Origin: an uncultured Chloroflexia bacterium
GTDB lineage: Bacteria; Chloroflexota; Anaerolineae; JAAYZQ01
Reading direction: 5' to 3'
Assembly: GCA_963700285.1 (NCBI GenBank)
Contig: CAVOXA010000014.1
Span: forward strand, 980,410 to 1,044,409
DNA length: 64,000 nt
The notes below the pieces were generated by a model. It was not told the origin of the DNA, made no database searches, and saw only the letters and a program-made list of their open reading frames with translations. The position numbers and the translations under genes were made by a program. This document shows positions 53,391 through 64,000 of this stretch, one piece after another. Every line of letters starts with the position of its first letter. Positions within the stretch are counted from its first letter, which is position 1.

Positions 53391-56300
53391 CTAGAGTAGT
53401 TGCGCGATCTGTTGTGCGATATTCCGTACCTCGCCGGAGTCCAATCCCCCTTGCGCATCGTCCTGAGTGGTGAACAGACTAATTCCCTCGATCAGTCCAT
53501 TCTGCAAGTACCACTCGCGTTTTCTCTCCCAAGAACGCCGGTAATCATCACGGGAGAGCATACCCAGGTGCTCCCAAATGACCGGATCCCCGGCTGGATC
53601 GGCAAAAAAGAAGTCGGGTCGGCGTTTACCCGGCACGACGGTACCTTCGAACCGTGGTTCGTACTCGTAGTCAATGTCCATCTGGAAGAGCATGTTTGCG
53701 ATTACCAGTTCTGACTTGCTGCGTACCATGTGACCTTTGAGGGTTCGATGGATCAGGTGTTCAGCGTAGGGTACTGCGTCGGCCTCAGAACGGACAGTTG
53801 CCTGGAAGAGGTTGGTGTTGCGTCGAGCGGTCTCGGAGCTCTCCGGACGCGTGTACTCGTATACGCTCGAGGCGTCAGAGCCCTCAATGAGTAGGACCAA
53901 TTGCTGCCGGGACCGTGTAAGAGCCGTGTAGAGAAGCTCACGCGACAAGAGCCGGCAGTGCTTGGGCAGAACGACAAAGACCTTTCTGAATTCGCTTCCC
54001 TGGGCCTTGTGAACCGTAAGCGCATAGGCCAGCTCAAGCGGCCCCGATCCTGATGCAAAGTCTTTCGTGTTGCTGTAGCCGACAGTGTAGTATGGTCGTC
54101 CCGCAAAGACAACGTTCAGATAGCCCTTGTTGTCTGTAGCACAGATGCCTACCTCTCCGTTGGCCAGGTAGCATCATTTCCGTCTTGTAGGTTCTGGTGT
54201 CGCATGCCCAGCGCCGCTGGTTGTCCAGTTGGATGACCTTGTCACGGATTACGATCTCCTCGTCGCCCAACTTGGCTTTCCACCTGTTGGACCGCGCGTT
54301 GCGCAGTTCCTGTCCCCTGTACTGTCCTTGAACCAAGCGGTTCAGCGCATAGATACCATGGGGATGCATTCTTACCGGCGATAGAATCTGGAAATTCTCC
54401 GCGCCATCTGGGTTGTCAAAGGGAACCCACCGTTTGTCAGTGAGACCGAGCGCACGGTCGAAACCGGCCACGTCCTTGTCGTTGCTCAGACCCAAGTGCC
54501 TGCAGAACAGCTCGAAGAGCAGACTGCGCAGTTCTTCGGGAGTCTTCCAAAACTGTATCTCCAGGTCGTTGAACGACTCGCCCTGCTCCAGGTCGCTGAA
54601 GACTCGGTCGGCATCGGCTGGCTGTTGCTCTCGCGTAAACCACGAGGCCAAGTGCAGCGTGTCCGACGGGCCAGTCGCCGCCGAGCGCACCTCTACCGTC
54701 AGCTTGCCCATTGTCTGGCTGAGCATCTTTTGCGCTGGATCGTCGGAGGCGCCTGCCAGCTCCAAGCTGCCTACAAGATCAGCAAAGGGTCGTCCCACGC
54801 CGATGGGCGGCAGTTGGTTTGGATCGCCGACGAGGATAATGCGTTGCACGTGCACCTGGTCGAGTGCTTGCAGGACGGCGAACAGATCATCCATCGTCAA
54901 CATAGAACTCTCGTCGATGACGACAGTCTTCTCTTTGCGGTACTTTTTCTCGCCATCGAAGAGGGGGCGCTGTCGTTCTCCATCGTAGCGACCCAACCTG
55001 TGAAGGAACTGGGCCACGGTCATTGCCTCACCTCGGGCGGCCCTTCCGAGGAGGACCCGCGCCTTGCCCGTTGGCGCCAGGAGGAGGATGCCATCGCTCG
55101 CCACAGCTCCGCACAACAGGAGCGCGCCCAAAGTGGATGTCTTGCCGGTACCGGCTCGACCCACCAGAACTGATAGCTTTCTTGTAGTGATCCTCTCCAG
55201 GGCGTTTGCCTGTTCTTCCAAGGCATCCAGGTGCCTCGGATTGCCCGGATCGTAGTTGCCACCCCTCGCTTCAATGGCCTGTACAATCAAATCTCTCCAA
55301 TTGACGCCCGCCGACGGGAGCGGTTTCATAGCGCGAGCGCGCAGAACCTTGCGCAACCGATCCTCGCGCCCTTTGAGATCGGTCATTTGCAGGGCGGGTA
55401 TCACCACCTGCTTCTCCGGCTCTTCAGGGCTTGGATCACTCGTCAGCACCTCCAAGCGCTCCACAACGCCAGACAGAGACGCTTCATTCGCCTTGAGCCA
55501 GTCGGCTGTCACCGCACACGGATGTGAAAGAGCCAGTTTCTCCAGCCGATCCATGACCTCCCGCTCAGCCAGAAGTGAGTCGCCGCTTTCGGCAGCCGCC
55601 CTTAGCACGCTGGCAATGGCGGCGCGCACGCGCCTGGCATCGAGTTGGGAGTGCACGGTGGAAGGGGCTGGCACTGGATGTCTGGCGGCGACGGTCGAGT
55701 CTGGCAGCAGTCCACGGTCTGTAACACCGATCGAGATCGGCCCATCGGTTGCATCACCCAGGTCAACTTCAGGGATGCGATAGGGATTGGCCAGGAGCTC
55801 TGGGTCTTTGAGTGGAACCGGGCGTTGCTCAGGGTTGAACCAGCGAGCTGATTGCTTCGGCGTGAGATCAAAGCGCGAGAGCAGGCAGAGCAAGGCGCGA
55901 CGCTCTTCGGATAGCCCGGCCCAGGTGTTACTCACTGCGTCCACATCACCCTGGTAGGCGGGCTTTGGTGGCGGTGTCTGACCTTGAAGGAGCGCATCCA
56001 CAGCAGGCCATGGATCGTCTCCTAGGCTGAACAATGCCCTCCGCATAGAGATCTAGGGCCAGAGCAGTTCCCAGACGAAGTCCAATGGCCTCCAAGGCTG
56101 ATCCCAAGCCGGGAAATGCGCCTCGCTCCTTCCACACGGCGGCGATCTGCTCGTTCAGCCAATCCTCGCGCGCATCCCAGGGACCTCTTGCTATGCCATG
56201 TTCCTTGATTCGGCGTACGGCTTCCAGACATTGAGTCAGAGTGGATAAGGCAATGTCCGCACTTGCCAACTCGGACATGTACGAAAAGGCGCGCAAGTGA

Positions 56301-57098
56301 TCGGAAGCAGGTACGATGGCGATCTCGCGTGCGAGTCTGTTCCGGCGCTCATCCTCGGCTGGATCTCCTGTCGGCGCGAGATATTGGTGATAGGGAAGCA
56401 AGAAGCCTTCCGCCCCGTCGGGGCGAACCGAGTGGCGAACTAGCCGATCCCATACGAGATAGGTTGGCTGTGCGGGATCGTCGGTCTCATAGTAGATCGG
56501 CCGGCCTATGCTTGTGACGTGTCCAAGACCGATTACAAGCCGAATGATCTCATCGCCCAGGGGATGGCCTTCCTTGGTATAGAAGAACACCAAGGACTTT
56601 CCCTCTTGAAGGCGATTGAAGAACATGTCGCTCAAGGCTTCCTGGCGGGCACGTCCGAACACCCATGCTGACTTGAAGGGCGCTTCTTCATCGGGAGGGA
56701 GCGGCTCTGGAAGGGATTGGTCGATCTCGTCCTGGTTCTGGCGGAGCATCCACCAGAAGGGAACCGCAAAGGTGGAGTATGGCGGTACGGGAACGACGGT
56801 GGGCTTGAGATGGCCGTGGGTTGCCTGTGTCTTGGTCAAGGGCTGGTACGGATGTTCGGCGACACGCACCCATTCATCAGGTGTCATAAAGGCACCGGCT
56901 TCTGCCTTGCACGGAGGAAGGTCCGCTAGCCCCAAGTCGGCCCACGCCTTGCCTGCTAGCCTGTCCTCTTTGTCATCGTCCCGAGGGGTTTCGCGGATGC
57001 GATCCAGAGCAATGCAGAACGAGTTCCGTGAGGGGGCACGACAAATCGGTGCCATCCCACTGGTTATCGTGCCAGGCTACGCGGATGGAAAGATGCAT
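53391..57098 (-). CDS. RecD2-like SF1 helicase with C-terminal PD-(D/E)xK-like nuclease (about 1230 aa; frameshifts near 57047, 56030, 54170)
   Basis: MHLSIRVAWHD start; GRAGTGKT, LLAPTGKA, VIDESSM, VGDPNQLPP, LAYALTVHKAQGSEF, LYTALTR; tail RSKSE..YEYE..PDF..WEHLGM. Confidence 0.85.
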
Positions 57099-57119
57099 AA
57101 CCAACCCCTTTCTCCGGTC

Positions 57120-57913
57120 CTATGTCTGATCTCCAGCCGCTATCCCTGCGAGTTGAGCTGCAATTGCCTGCTGAAGAGCAGTGGCCTCCCCGTGTCTGAG
57201 CGTTGCTCGTCGGACATCCATCCGCTCCTCCAGCACCCACAAAGAGGGCTGGTACGCCTTCCAGTGCGACCCGAAGCCATCCGATTCGAGAAAGGCCACG
57301 GCTGCGTCTTCCTCGAAAGCCCTCAAGGTCAATCTGCGGTGACAGATGCCGCTGCCACCAGGCCCAGACGACGAGCGGAAACACCTCGCGGGACACCGGC
57401 AACCGGGCGGCAAACCGGTATTCCCCTCTGCGCTCTCCCTCGTCCAGCACGCCAAAGTACTGAAGGCTCCGCAGGAAAGCGCTGGCCGCATTGGTCACCA
57501 CCTTGCGTTGGCCGAACTGGACTAGCGGTGTGCCGGCGTACATCGCTGCTGTCTAGCTCGTCGCCCAGGGCGTGGCGACGCACCAGGAATCTGGTCGCTT
57601 CCTGGGCGACCTCGTTCTGGGCAATGAGATGCGCCAAGTAGGCCGGGGCCATCGTGCTGGCCGGATACGCCCGGCTATAGGCCACCCACACGTCTCGCTC
57701 GGCTGTGCGACGCGACTGGCCGCCGCCTTCGGTGGCGACAAAGTAGCGCAGGATGACGGTCAGGCTGTTGCGTCGCGTCTTTTCGCCGCCCAGTTCCTGC
57801 ATGGTATGGGCAAGCGCCGCTTCCACCAATTCGCCGATGGGCTGTGCTGGCTGCCACAAGGCGTGGACGTCGTGGATCCACTGGGGCTTGACAGGGAAAT
57901 CGAGGCCGATCAT
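57120..57913 (-). CDS. brxA: BREX type 3 BrxA-like protein (frameshift near 57520)
   Basis: MIG.D..., TRRNSLTVI.RYF, FGQRKVVTNAASAFLRSLQYFGVL; ATGA overlap with pglZ; position last of the core genes as in BREX-3. Confidence 0.65.
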
Positions 57914-59943
57914 GTGCCAGCACCTCCTGGCGAGCGGGTGATCTCCACAAAGGGCACCACCAGTTCCTCCAGCGACAGCCCGCCGTGGGAGATGTGCGTA
58001 GCCCCTTGCGTGTCAAAGAGCTGCGTGCCGGGCGCATAGACGGGGTGCACGTCGGGCGGCAGGGCCTTGGTGCGGTACAGTCGCAGGCCGTGCTCCGCGG
58101 CATACTCCTCCGCCAGGTCGGCCCGGTCAAAGAGGACCACACGCCGGGCATAGCTCTCTATCAGGGCCTTGGGTGGCTTCAGGCCACTGCCCACGCCGGC
58201 GATGTTGCCGTGGTCGGCGGTGAGGTAGACGCGGTAGCCGTTCTTGAGCAACAGATGCGAACAGCTCAGCCAGGCGGCCGTTCTCCAGGTGGCCCTGCAG
58301 CGTGGCATAGTAGACCCGCTTGTCGGCCTCCGGCGTCATACCCTTGACGGCGTGCATCACCTCGTCAAAGAGATTGACCAGCACACCCAGCCGCCGGTTC
58401 CTGCCCTCGGCGATGGCTCGCACCTCGTCCAGGCCCTGCCCATTCACCTTGACCGCCGCGTAGGCCACCCGCTGCCTGGGGACGTTGTGGTTGACCCAGT
58501 AGGCCTGCCAGCGTTCGGCATCCTTGTCCGTTCGCTGCAGCGTCTCGGCAAAGGCCGTGGGCGGGCGGCCGGCAAAGAGCGCCTGGCGCGAGCCACAGGC
58601 GTCACCGTGGGCGCCACGGCGTAGGTGCGGTTCTCGTCGAAAGCCAGGCCGGGCAGCGCCGGACCGAGCCACTCGCGCAGCAGGAACCACTGGTCCAGGG
58701 CCAGCCCGTCGAAGCAGAGCAGGGCCAGGCGCTCGTCGCGGCCGCACGTGCTGGAGAAACCAGCGGTTGACCTGGCTGAGACAGATGGGCCCCTTATTGT
58801 CCCAGTAATGGTCTACGGCGCTGTAGCGCGCCTGGACGAACGTCCAGAAGCTGCTCGTCCAGGGCTGCACGGGCCGCGGCCAGGTCGGGCTGGACCTGTG
58901 TCATAGATCGCCAGCGGGCAGGGTGTTGGCCTGGTAGACGACCTCGGCCCACTCGATTGGCCAGGTTGAGCCAGTCGCGCAGGTCGGTCTTGCCGCTGGG
59001 CAGGGTCGTCTCGTCCATGGCCTGGAAGCGGGCCAGCCGCGTCTTGAGGTTGTAGAGGGCCTGCGTCGGCCCGCTCCTTGACCGGCCGGCCCGCGTTCCT
59101 GTCGCGTGAGGCCAGGCCGATGGCCGTCCACTCCTGGCGTGGGCGGCGCTCTCCGGCGCCGGGGCGCGGGCGACCAGCCCCTCGGCAAAGAGGTAGCCCA
59201 GCAGCGGGCGCAGCCGGGCGTCGCCCAGGTCCACCGCCGGCGGCGTCGCCCTCGCCGGCCAGCGTGCGCGACGTAGGCCGCCCAGCTGCTCGCCCAGCCA
59301 GGCGTAGAAGGCGCCGGCGTCGGTCAGGAACTCGGGACGCAGACCGGTGTGGGCCACGCCGCGGCAGGAGGCGCTGGATGACGTACTCTTCCAGGGCCGG
59401 CGGCAGCTCGCGGGCGCTGTAGTGCTTGTGGATCAGGAACTCGACCCAGCGAGCCGGATCGCCCGCGCCAGCCGGGTCCAGGCCAAAGCAGACGCGCAGG
59501 ATGAACTCGATGGTCGGCCGCTCGCCGCGCAGCATCTCGCCGCGCGCCACGAGCTGCTGGTGGGCCGGGTAGAGGTCGGCATAGTAGGCGTTGTCCAGTT
59601 GGCGGACGACGATGGCGTTGAGGTTGGGGAAGAGGCTGCTCACGCTCAGCTCGATGCGCTTGCTCTTCTGCCACAGGTCGTAGGGGATGTGCCGCTCGCC
59701 GTCGGTGGTGTGGACCACAACGACGATGTGCAGCGCCTCGCCGTCGTCCCAGCGGCTGCGGTAGTTGCGCTCGAACAGGTTGCGGAACGAGACCTCGTCG
59801 TCCAGCTCCAGCACGTCATAGTTGCTGTTCTGGATCTCGGCCAGCAGGGCGTCGTCGCGCATCAGGTTGTCGGGGTCGATGACCAGGAGCATCCGCTCCC
59901 GCTTGGGCGTGAAATGGGCCAGGATGGCTTCTTGCCAGGTCAT
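57910..59943 (-). CDS. pglZ: BREX type 3 phosphatase PglZ (multiple frameshifts)
   Basis: WQEAILAHF..LVIDPD.L..YRSRWD.G..IPYDL..LFPNL N-terminus; ALLCFDGLALDQW; SRQALFAG; TADHGN; SHGGLSLEELVVP. Confidence 0.88.
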
Positions 59944-60022: not shown

Positions 60023-62470
60023 TCACCCTTCCACCTTCGCCTCAGCAATATCCACAAAATCGAACAGGTCGGGGCTCGATTCCAGCAGCCGCTTGGGCAG
60101 CCGGCGGCCGACCGTCAGGATGTCCTGGAAGCGACCGGCACGGTAGGCCTCGGTGAAGCCGGCGACCAGCGCCTCCTTGCGCACCTCCTTCAGCCGGCCC
60201 CCGGCGCGCGCCGTCTCCAGGTACTCCTCGAACTGGCGCAGCAGCCGCGCCTGGCGCCTGGCCTCCAGCTCGGCCTGGGTGAGGGCGTCGGGGCGCTTCC
60301 AGCGGCCATTGGTGCGGACGAAGCCCTCTTCCAGCATGGTCATCGGTTCCGGGAGCTCGTCCTCCGAGGTTTGCAGGGCCTTGACAAAGGCGGTATAGAT
60401 CTCGTCGTAGGTCTTGGGCGTCGCCAGGAAATCCCACAGCCACTGGCGGGCGCTGCGCTCGTCGCTGATAAAGAGCACGGCCTGGCCGGCGCCCCGTTTG
60501 GCGTGCTTCGTCTTGCGCGTTTCGTACTCGTTGGCCTGGGCCTCGTCGGCGAACCAGTAGCCGTCGCGCTCGACCAGGCCCCACTGGGGCAGGGCACGGT
60601 AGAACTGCTCGGCGTTGTAGGCCACCTGGTAGCCGTGCTGGACGTAGTAGGCCAGGTACTTGGAGTAGAGCATCTCCTTGCTGCGCTCGACGTTGGCGGC
60701 TACCGGCAGCTGAGCCAGATGCTGCCGCACGAAATCGGCCTCCAAGTCCCTGCCCAGCTTGAGAGAGGAATCGCTGTGAGAAGCTGTCTCGCGGTTTGTA
60801 GGCGTTGATGACCAGATCGTTCTTGACCGGCACCGGGCGCAGTGACTTGCTTGAAGGTGCCCTGCTTCTTGTCCAGACAGTGACTTGAGCAACCAGAAAG
60901 CCAGCGCGGGCCAGGGCCTCTTGAATTGCGTTCCAGACGCTGGCTTTCGAGTTGTGGAAACACGACGGTAATCCAGCGATCCGGTTTGAGAATTCGATAC
61001 ATCTCCGCGAAACAAGCGGTCATCAACTCACGATAGTCGTCAAGTTGCTTTCGTTGAGTTCTGTTGATGATTGCTTCAGGCTGTTATTCGTGAAAACACC
61101 AGCCAAGCTTCCCACAGGAAGTTCAGCTCAGAGTACATCAGGTTGCCACCAAAAGGCGGGTCAGTGAAGATGTAGTCGACTGAATCTGGCAGGTATGTTT
61201 GCCAGATCCGTTGCAGACTGTGTGGTAATGAGCACTGCCATCTTGGACGTCGCTGATGCATCTTGGCAAGATCGCTCAGCTTGGACTCTCAGCAGCCTTA
61301 TGAACGCGATGTCTCTGTCATGAACGAGGCATATATAGAGTGCCACGAGCAGGTTTATCGCACCTGCCACGGTTGCCGGAAGTTGTATACTGTCATTTGG
61401 AGCGTCAAGGCTGCTCATCTGAGGTGAGGCAGATCAGCAAAGCATTGCGTAGGCCGAACGTCGTCTCTGGGAAAGCCGCATCGATGAACAGATGTTGCCA
61501 ATGTCCACAGATTGCGCTTCGGTAAAGAACTGATGGACGTGCATATGCCGTCTGATGCCGAGTCGTACATGGTTCCCCATCGCTGCACCGATGAACATCA
61601 TTCTTTCAGCTGGGGTACCAGTACGGGATCTCGCGCTGCTTCGATTCTGCGAATCAGCTCCAAATCATGTCGTCAGGCTTCTTTGTCATAGCGTCGTCTT
61701 GCCGACCGAGTAGTTAATGAACACAGGTACTGTCCAGAGCCTGCCCATCGCTGTTCAGAAGACTCTGCGTCATGTGATCGCTTACTCAGCTTCGCACCGC
61801 ATTCGGGACAGGGGAACTCATCGCTCACCTCCCTGCCGGCCATCATCCACGGCTAGCATCCCAAAGGACATGTTTCGTCTACGCAGTATGGGCACTGGAA
61901 GCACGTCACTCCAGACCGTGAAATTGATGCGTTGCCCTTGCGACCATCAATATGTCTGGTCTCGTACATCCAGCCGCATTCTCTCTTCAACTTGCTTTGA
62001 GAATCTGCTTGAGCCTCGCATACGAAGTCTGATCGAGTCTACTGGCGTGTTGTAGTTGTAGGCGATGAAGGTCGCAGCAGGCGAAAGGTCGCACAGTATC
62101 GCATGGCGACCTGCATCTGAGCAGCAATCACCAGTCATACCCGTGCCGCAGAAGCCGTCAAAGACGATGTCGCCTGGCTCAGTGTAGTGCTCGATGAACG
62201 GGATGATGGCCTTGTAGGGCACTTTGGTGTGGTAGGCATGGGCTTGTAGATGGGATCGCTCTTGCCTTCGGAGACATCGCCTACGTACGGCTCGCGGTGG
62301 TAGTCGTCGGTGGCCTCGTCGTAGGGCGTGCCCCACTTCTCGATGAACTCGGCGATGTGGGGGTTGGGGTAGGCGGTATAGTGCGGCGGGTCGGACAGGG
62401 CCAGCAGGTCCTCGTCCTCGCCGATGGGAAAGCCCTCGATGTGGCGGAGTTCGTCCAGGTTGTCAGTCAC
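60023..62470 (-). CDS. pglXI: BREX type 3 adenine DNA methyltransferase PglXI, copy A (multiple frameshifts)
   Basis: GFPIGEDEDLLALSDPPHYTAYPNP, AHAYHTKVP, DGFCGTGMTG (motif I), DLSPAATFI, VWSDV, DYIFTDPPFG (motif IV), DLVINAYKP; GTG after AAGGAGG. Confidence 0.85.
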
Positions 62471-63340
62471 TATGCTTCTCCTCCTTGCACGAGACCATGT
62501 GGTCATCATGGCCAGTTACTCGAGCAGATCGCTATGCCTCCACCTTCGCCTCAGCAATGTCCACAAAGTCGAACAGGTCAGGGCTGGACTCCAGCAGCCG
62601 CTTGGGCAGCCTGCGGCCCACGGTCAGGATGTCCTGGAAGCGGCTGGCACGGTACGCCTCGGTGAACCCGGCGACCAGCGCCTCCTTGCGCACCTCCTTC
62701 AGCCGCCCTCCGGCGCGCGCCGTGGCCAGATACTCCTCGAACTGGCGCAGCAGCCGCGCCTGGCGGCGTGGCCTCCAGCTCCGCCTGGGTCAGGGCATCC
62801 GGGCGCTTCCAGCGGCCATTGGTGCGGATGAAGCCCTCTTCCAGCATGGTCATCGGTTCCGGGAGCTCATCCTCCGAGGTTTGCAGGGCTTTGACAAAGG
62901 CGGTATAGATCTCGTCGTAGGTCTTGGGCGTCGCCAGGAAATCCCACAGCCACTGGCGGGCGCTGCGCTCGTCGCTGACAAAGAGCACGGCCTGGCCGGT
63001 GCCCCGTCTTGCCGTGTCTTCGTTTTGCGCGTTTCGTACTCTTGGCCTGGGCCTCGTCGGCGAACCAGTAGCCGTCGCGCTCCACCAGGCCCCACTGGGG
63101 CAGGGCGCGGTAGAACTGCTCGGCGTTGTAGGCCACCTGGTAGCCGTGCTGGACGTAGTAGGCCAGGTACTTGGAGTAGAGCATCTCTTTGCTGCGCTCG
63201 ACGTTGACCGCTACCGGCAACTGGGCCAGGTGCTGGCGGACGAACTCCGGCTCCAGTCCATGCCCGGCCTGGCGAGATGAAACGTTCCTTGAAGGACCTG
63301 TCCGTGGCTTGTAGGCATTGATGACCAGATCGTTCTTGAC
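60031..63340 (-). repeat. About 800-bp direct repeat (60031-60830 vs 62540-63340)
   Basis: Offset about 2510 nt; about 5 mismatches in the 200 nt compared by eye (60291-60490 vs 62801-63000). Confidence 0.9.
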
Positions 63341-64000
63341 TGCGCCAGGTGCGGTGACTCTGCTTGTACGTGCCCTGTTCTTTGTCCAGGACAGCAACTT
63401 GGGCAACTAGGAAACCAGCACGTGCCAGGGACTCTTGGATGGCATTCCAGACAGCTGCACTTGAATTGTGGAATACGACTGTGATCCATCGACCAGGCTT
63501 TAGTTTCCTAGCGAGTTGCTGAAACAGCCGATAGCATCAGGCCTCGGTATGATACCAGGTCCTTGCGTTGCGTTTTGCTGCAGATCGCTTCGGGTTTGGA
63601 ATTGGTGAAAACCCGTAGCCACGCTTCCCAGATGAAGTTCATTTCCGAGTACATCATATTGCCTCCAAAAGGAGGATCAACAAAGATGTAGTCAATGGAT
63701 TCATCCGGTACGTTGTTCAAGTCAGTCGCGCTCTGTGTGCTGATGGCAACCCCACAAAACTCAGATGTACGCTCTGGCGCCCACTTCTTGAAGCTGTTCA
63801 GTTTCTTCTCAATCAAGTTCGGAAGATTTCTTTCGGCGTGGATTGAAGTCGGTTGTAGCGTATTGGGTATTTGCCCTGCCAGATTGATGCTGCCTTTCGA
63901 GATTCCTACATTGTGCATTCTGGAGCCAGTCTTGGTCATGACTGAGGTTATTGCGAAACGTAGGACTGCGGACACTTCATACGGCATCTTGCTGGCTCGT
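62532..64000 (-). CDS. pglXI: BREX type 3 PglXI methyltransferase, copy B (5' end outside window; frameshifts)
   Basis: QSATDL..DYIFVDPPFGGN..YSEMN, AVKNDLVINAYKP, C-terminus near-identical to copy A. Confidence 0.85.

Follow-up and report, generated by a model that had tools for sequence, protein, structure and literature searches.

A PDC-S68 helicase-nuclease gene behind a BREX-3 locus without brxHII is probably an accessory anti-phage gene

Canonical type 3 bacteriophage exclusion (BREX) loci follow the order brxF-brxC-pglXI-brxHII-pglZ-brxA. In their review, Rakesh and Krishnan (PMC12839542) place BrxHII in 77% of type-3 systems and describe many accessory nucleases at BREX loci, among them restriction endonucleases, HNH, OLD, HEPN and Schlafen proteins; RecD is not mentioned in the main text of that review. 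A catalogue of 145 candidate genes, the PDCs, was drawn from inside BREX, DISARM and type I restriction-modification (RM) loci (Payne et al., bioRxiv 10.1101/2024.01.29.577857), and the main text of that preprint names neither PDC-S68 nor RecD. The locus described here lies in a window of 64,000 nt at the very end of contig C14 (CAVOXA010000014.1) in the assembly of an uncultured Chloroflexia bacterium (GCA_963700285.1; 7.05 Mb, 22 contigs, 89% complete). There, a helicase-nuclease gene that is a member of the PADLOC candidate PDC-S68 follows a BREX-3 operon without brxHII, and we consider it likely that the gene encodes a self-contained accessory anti-phage enzyme and not a BREX subunit.

The BREX-3 genes run on the minus strand as pglXI-pglXI-pglZ-brxA, with the helicase-nuclease gene beginning 21 nt further on behind a Shine-Dalgarno-like sequence, the arrangement described in a first-pass annotation of this DNA and matched here gene by gene with PADLOC and NCBIfam models. 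The locus thus has pglXI, a BREX-3 pglZ and brxA in the canonical order, and differs in its two tandem pglXI copies and in being without brxHII, as are about 23% of type-3 systems (PMC12839542). Because the window ends with contig C14, sequence upstream of the first pglXI is unreadable, and brxF and brxC are lost from view. Only 79 nt separate pglXI copy 2 from pglZ, so no brxHII is located between them, as the same annotation had stated. The short gap behind brxA and the absence of any terminator-like site called within it by a terminator scan suggest that the helicase gene is probably co-transcribed with the BREX-3 operon. Three scanned pieces of the gene matched the PADLOC model PDLC05065 at positions 23-347, 352-950 and 955-1219 of 1221 (357 + 640 + 342 bits; E 5e-107, 3e-192 and 1e-102), and PDC-S68 is represented in PADLOC by the hidden Markov models PDLC05064-05066. 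The gene is thus an already catalogued one, matched colinearly over its full length, and it resembles its family in being a single gene beside methylase-based defence systems. We saw no family-level difference; here the gene trails BREX and does not lie between BREX genes.

PDC-S68 is a large family: of 7,987 scored candidates, at least 3,300 (clusters at 90% identity) match at E <=1e-40, and the N-terminal profile matches 1,903 representatives at 50% identity. Members were found in bacteria and archaea (a Methanocaldococcus jannaschii match was among 14 controls), and their distribution is patchy: three of 300 genomes of the class and five of 400 of the phylum carry the gene, one genome being common to both samples, and none of the 22 other genomes of the order does. 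Homologue loci were taken as the best 80 of 588 found in GTDB, which biases the sample to close relatives. All open reading frames (ORFs) of these loci were blasted against BREX, RM and DUF499 references, 90 immediate neighbours were scanned with PADLOC at E 1e-30 (one locus without a helicase ORF being skipped), and 40 locus proteins were scanned with Pfam. Defence or RM genes lie close to the helicase in at least 35 of the 80 loci, a raw count from which 13 loci with an SNF2 gene only were left out; in the remaining loci, several of them truncated, no defence gene was seen. The neighbours include TmtA, type I, III, IIG, ISP or MmeI RM genes, QatA, LmuA and DruE, as well as PADLOC 'Effector' models, which we take to be CBASS-type, other PDCs, PglZ and DUF499. 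They vary across the 80 loci, as for a single-gene unit with no obligate partner, and in L116 and L127 the homologue is inserted inside a type I RM system. Seven other Chloroflexota genomes carry the gene, one by Hma-like genes, two by type III RM, one by BrxD/BrxHI-like genes and none beside BREX-3. Given that so many homologues stand beside assorted defence genes, a stand-alone accessory gene is the best reading, and PDC-S68 is probably a defence gene. This supports the proposal in the first-pass annotation of a stand-alone anti-phage gene backing up BREX. The check that it had proposed, on homologues in BREX or defence islands, gave a mixed outcome: defence genes at large are often neighbours, but BREX-3 adjoins the helicase in just one of the 80 loci (L108, brxC-pglXI-brxHII-pglZ-brxA-helicase), and in two more the PglZ-like gene lying within 10 kb is of a different type.

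TmtA was the commonest PADLOC-named neighbour. In 11 of the 80 loci, from several phyla (L064, L076, L116, L117, L121, L127, L128, L133, L134, L136 and L137; L079 has a Sacsin domain), the closest large gene on the same strand is TmtA-like; such neighbours are far commoner than BREX-3 genes, and PDC-S68 and Tiamat TmtA are possibly a functional pairing. A further 26 loci, from the viral collection IMG/VR (L150-L175), have homologues that align from the N-terminal region onward or along the greater part of their length, and prophages or other mobile elements may thus carry the gene.

The motifs quoted in the first-pass annotation for the N-terminus (RVAWHD..IC..NSFC) and the nuclease-like end (RSKSE, PDF, WEH), and the Walker A sequence GRAGTGKT, are present in the gene and conserved across the family. 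Sequence searches with the N-terminal domain returned no meaningful Pfam or PDB match and no Pfam EVE match, and comparison with an EVE profile gave a weak match. When the domain from an AlphaFold model of the homologue at L064 (pLDDT 93) was searched against 48,161 chains, eight of the ten best matches were YTH or EVE-type domains. Those named were Mmi1, PH1033, 2ar1, VcaM4I, THYN1 bound to 5-methylcytosine DNA, YTHDC2 and CPSF4, of which PH1033 and 2ar1 are presumably EVE domains; Foldseek gave nothing at E <=0.001 and Atlas no match. On this model, the N-terminus is predicted to fold like modified-base-reading domains. Its conserved residues include C19, C28, C63 and H82, which likely form a metal site, and several Trp; in the family alignment the Trp/Tyr positions are nearly invariant, and one sliced alignment places W145 at the conserved Trp of the EVE set. 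Proteins of 186-667 aa with this domain numbered 254; the 120 of them listed look like truncated family members, only two having any Pfam domain, and among these top matches there was no evidence of its reuse outside the family. The helicase core has Walker A and B, motifs III-VI and the RecD fold, and fold searches with the whole model were filled by helicases, RecD2 being closest. In the C-terminal domain, S, K, S, E, then P, D, F, then E, H, G are invariant in 53 sequences. This domain has weak PADLOC matches to PDC-S69 and HEAT_CxxC_PD-DEXK, no Pfam or PDB sequence match, and an Atlas lead to DUF559/MTES_1575 at 0.79. Four PDC-S68 members of 1,400-1,560 aa carry C-terminal extensions, that of P0262 being Schlafen AlbA_2 and those of P0290, P0316 and P0323 having Rx4H-like motifs, which suggest HEPN, with no Pfam match.

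Relative to Deinococcus radiodurans RecD2 and RecD (SF1B, that is superfamily 1B; PDB 3e1s, 3gp8, 5ld2_D), the protein adds a predicted N-terminal PUA-like domain of ~300 aa and a putative C-terminal nuclease domain, and its middle piece scores 126 bits against TIGR01448, for which the cut-off is 500. SauUSI is arranged as nuclease-helicase-recognition domain; here an SF1B motor lies between the predicted reader and the nuclease. That intervening SF1B motor also separates the protein from the PUA-superfamily modification-dependent nucleases VcaM4I (EVE-HNH) and YenY4I (PMC6765204), as do its large inserts with a Cys3-His site and its lack of a Pfam EVE match; the accessible text of that source and of an EVE survey (PMC7641849) describes no RecD fusion. 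BrxU and other BREX accessory effectors (PMC12839542; Payne et al.) are likewise accessory nucleases, encoded inside or next to a BREX locus, co-oriented with it and proposed as a back-up layer, but the protein studied here is of a different enzyme class.

The gene is split into four frame pieces by +1 frameshifts at three places (near 57047, 56028 and 54172), which could mean that this copy is a decaying pseudogene. We regard this as very unlikely, as frameshifts are common to all genes of the locus (pglXI, pglZ and brxA included) and to unrelated genes elsewhere in the assembly, while the catalytic motifs are intact and the homologue P0001 (1,233 aa) is colinear with all four pieces at 76-83% identity throughout. 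At both 54172 and 56028, contigs of relatives from other runs are shorter by one base; a contig of 2,069 nt, at ~92% identity, spans pglZ, brxA and the helicase start. Together with the colinear P0001, these contigs indicate that the frameshifts most likely arose in assembly and that the brxA-helicase junction is real. A real junction, kept in a related strain, with the gene on the same strand so close behind brxA and with no brxHII between pglXI and pglZ, would also fit the other possibility raised in the first-pass annotation, a BREX-3 subtype in which the SF1 helicase-nuclease takes BrxHII's place as unwinding motor. The distribution of the two genes argues otherwise. In the one sample of 300 class genomes, BREX-3 PglZ was present in 19, and none of these was among the three with PDC-S68. 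Six of the 23 BREX-3 PglZ loci were left out as truncated or belonging to a different system; in the 17 assessable loci, brxHII precedes pglZ in five (PADLOC confirmed two, size and motifs identify two others, and the fifth is a partial ORF) and is missing from 12. Half of these 12 extend back to brxC, identified in one by PADLOC and in the others by size and N-terminus, and lack an SNF2 gene in that stretch as well. L054, the closest BREX-3 relative, has pglXI-pglZ-brxA and no PDC-S68. BREX-3 without BrxHII is thus common and occurs without PDC-S68. L108, the only BREX-3-linked homologue among the best 80 loci, keeps brxHII, so that we found neither mutual exclusion of the two genes nor enrichment of PDC-S68 at brxHII-less BREX-3 (0/19). 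With BrxHII present in just 77% of type-3 systems to begin with, the replacement idea fails, and we judge it highly improbable.

The gene could also be genomic-island cargo with no immune role, a mobile helicase-nuclease of the RecD2 or AddAB kind that serves DNA repair or recombination. RecD2 being the closest fold agrees with this, as do the integrases, transposases or housekeeping genes adjoining some loci and the full or near-full-length copies on viral-collection contigs. We nonetheless think it unlikely: the same genome has a separate RecD-like match on contig C10, none of the other 22 genomes of the order has the gene, defence genes often adjoin its homologues, even to the point of insertion within type I RM, and one member has an effector-type extra domain fused to it. 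As a self-contained accessory anti-phage enzyme, by comparison, the protein would strike phage DNA that escapes BREX, independently of BREX. Its PUA-like, probably zinc-stabilised N-terminal domain would bind the target nucleic acid. The SF1B motor, of RecD2 type, would then load on single-stranded DNA and unwind the target, moving in the 5'->3' direction of SF1B helicases, and cleavage of the unwound DNA would fall to the C-terminal PD-(D/E)XK-like domain. A sharper form of this reading is a modification-dependent (type IV-like) restriction motor, in which recognition of a methylated or hypermodified base by the PUA-like domain would unlock the helicase-nuclease, complementing BREX as BrxU does. 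The YTH/EVE-type fold matches, the aromatic positions including W145 and the frequency of methylase-based systems among the neighbours are consistent with this sharper form, which we put forward tentatively. Fusions of PUA-superfamily domains to nucleases are known modification-dependent enzymes, although the pocket is missing from genuine PUA domains (PMC6765204). For the trigger, a modified base is our preferred guess, held with less than even confidence; it would otherwise be a replication fork or another DNA structure. Slightly more tentative again is the extension to the whole family, by which PDC-S68 might comprise widespread undescribed ATP-driven modification-dependent restriction enzymes, their zinc-stabilised YTH/EVE-like reader launching a RecD2-type motor and nuclease, recruited behind BREX, RM and Tiamat loci against phages whose modified DNA evades methylation-based defence.

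A brxHII-less BREX-3 and a catalogued candidate are both known kinds and, as a BREX story, the locus carries little weight, since brxHII-less type-3 loci and accessory effectors have been described already. Its value lies in the PDC-S68 family, which is large, spans bacteria and archaea and has a candidate function only. We found no published description or anti-phage test of PDC-S68, of its N-terminal domain or of a PUA-RecD-nuclease fusion, in a search outside which most subscription journals and two relevant supplements fell; term searches in the DefensePredictor and metagenomic-selection papers and in cold-seep supplements found nothing. The YTH/EVE-like assignment of the unannotated N-terminus makes modification dependence and the role of the Trp and Cys residues directly testable, and if protection were to track phage DNA modification and to need these residues, the protein would represent a new type IV restriction architecture.

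Table. Features of the locus, with positions numbered from the first letter of the window.
Feature	Position	Strand	Details
PDC-S68 helicase-nuclease gene	53391..57098	-	ATG 57098, stop 53391; 3,708 nt, ~1,235 codons
N-terminal domain, ~residues 1-300	56200..57098	-	predicted PUA-like (YTH/EVE) barrel with inserts
Walker A motif GRAGTGKT, SF1B/RecD2-type helicase	55138..55161	-	sequence; Pfam AAA_30 E 6e-29
SF1B helicase core, AAA_30 to UvrD_C_2	53889..55218	-	
C-terminal PD-(D/E)XK-like nuclease domain (SKSE...PDF...EH-G)	53391..53792	-	putative, from sequence conservation
Intergenic gap, 21 nt	57099..57119	-	Shine-Dalgarno-like GGAG/AAGGGG
brxA	57120..57913	-	frameshifted; start overlaps pglZ stop; PADLOC BrxA E 2.7e-4
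pglZ, BREX-3 type	57910..59943	-	frameshifted; NF033449 BREX-3 PglZ is the best NCBIfam match, in three pieces
pglXI copy 2	60023..62470	-	full length, frameshifted; PDLC02541 matches, blastn, tblastn
pglXI copy 1, 3' part (BREX-3 methyltransferase)	62532..64000	-	truncated by contig end, frameshifted

The first pglXI copy matched PADLOC PDLC02541 PglXI (E 6e-37 + 2.5e-25) and, by tblastn, the PglXI of L054 and L043. By blastn and tblastn, the tandem copies are 85.7% identical over the 3' 1.16 kb and share ~45-50% protein identity in the middle region, a divergence that suggests two methyltransferases of different target specificity; no second copy was present in the other class BREX-3 loci viewed. 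The pglZ gene exceeds the NF033449 cut-off when in-frame neighbours are included, and its N-terminal piece is 80-82% identical to the PglZ of L054 (tblastn). Against the brxA of L054, the brxA studied here shows 63, 61 and 43% identity in three frames (tblastn).

Elsewhere in the assembly, no BREX-3 brxF or brxC and no convincing brxHII was found, in scans of which one missed its controls too. The best BrxHII matches genome-wide were short generic SNF2 pieces of at most 90 bits, against 709-1537 bits for true BrxHII. An SNF2 helicase gene at the start of contig C9 (L229:1-5500), behind which a large ORF is cut short by the contig end, was rejected as the missing brxHII, as only short pieces of it match BrxHII and no BREX-3 genes lie nearby; by its look, we take this locus to be DISARM/ARMADA-type. 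The assembly's only BrxC, on C4 and C22, was likewise rejected as the missing upstream half, being part of a separate BREX-1-like locus. On C4 (L005:1-8732) this comprises brxA, a brxB-sized ORF, brxC, AbiEi/AbiEii and pglX, and on C22 (L006:1-11826) the brxC end, a helicase, pglX, Fic and pglZ, with near-duplicate sequence common to both contig ends. Two BREX-3 loci of other genomes have different helicases: at L055:5751-10724 (G240, of the same family as the studied genome) a Mokosh-like SF1 helicase of 1,658 aa (MkoC E 3e-68) sits between brxC and pglXI of another brxHII-less BREX-3, and at L056:3791-8764 (G189) a BREX-3-type pglZ-brxA pair is preceded by a DruE-like helicase, not BrxHII.

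Comparison with the same-genus genome G263 defined no empty integration site, synteny breaking at window position ~49600. No sequencing run with half of the stretch was found, and no habitat was inferred; between 50000 and 64000 the window has no Rfam match. On the minus strand at 52950-52752, a terminator-like hairpin lies ~170 nt beyond a near-consensus sigma-70 promoter (11/12, extended -10). Sequence resembling this element recurs elsewhere in the genome and in the same-genus genome, and the element is possibly a small RNA or a leader.

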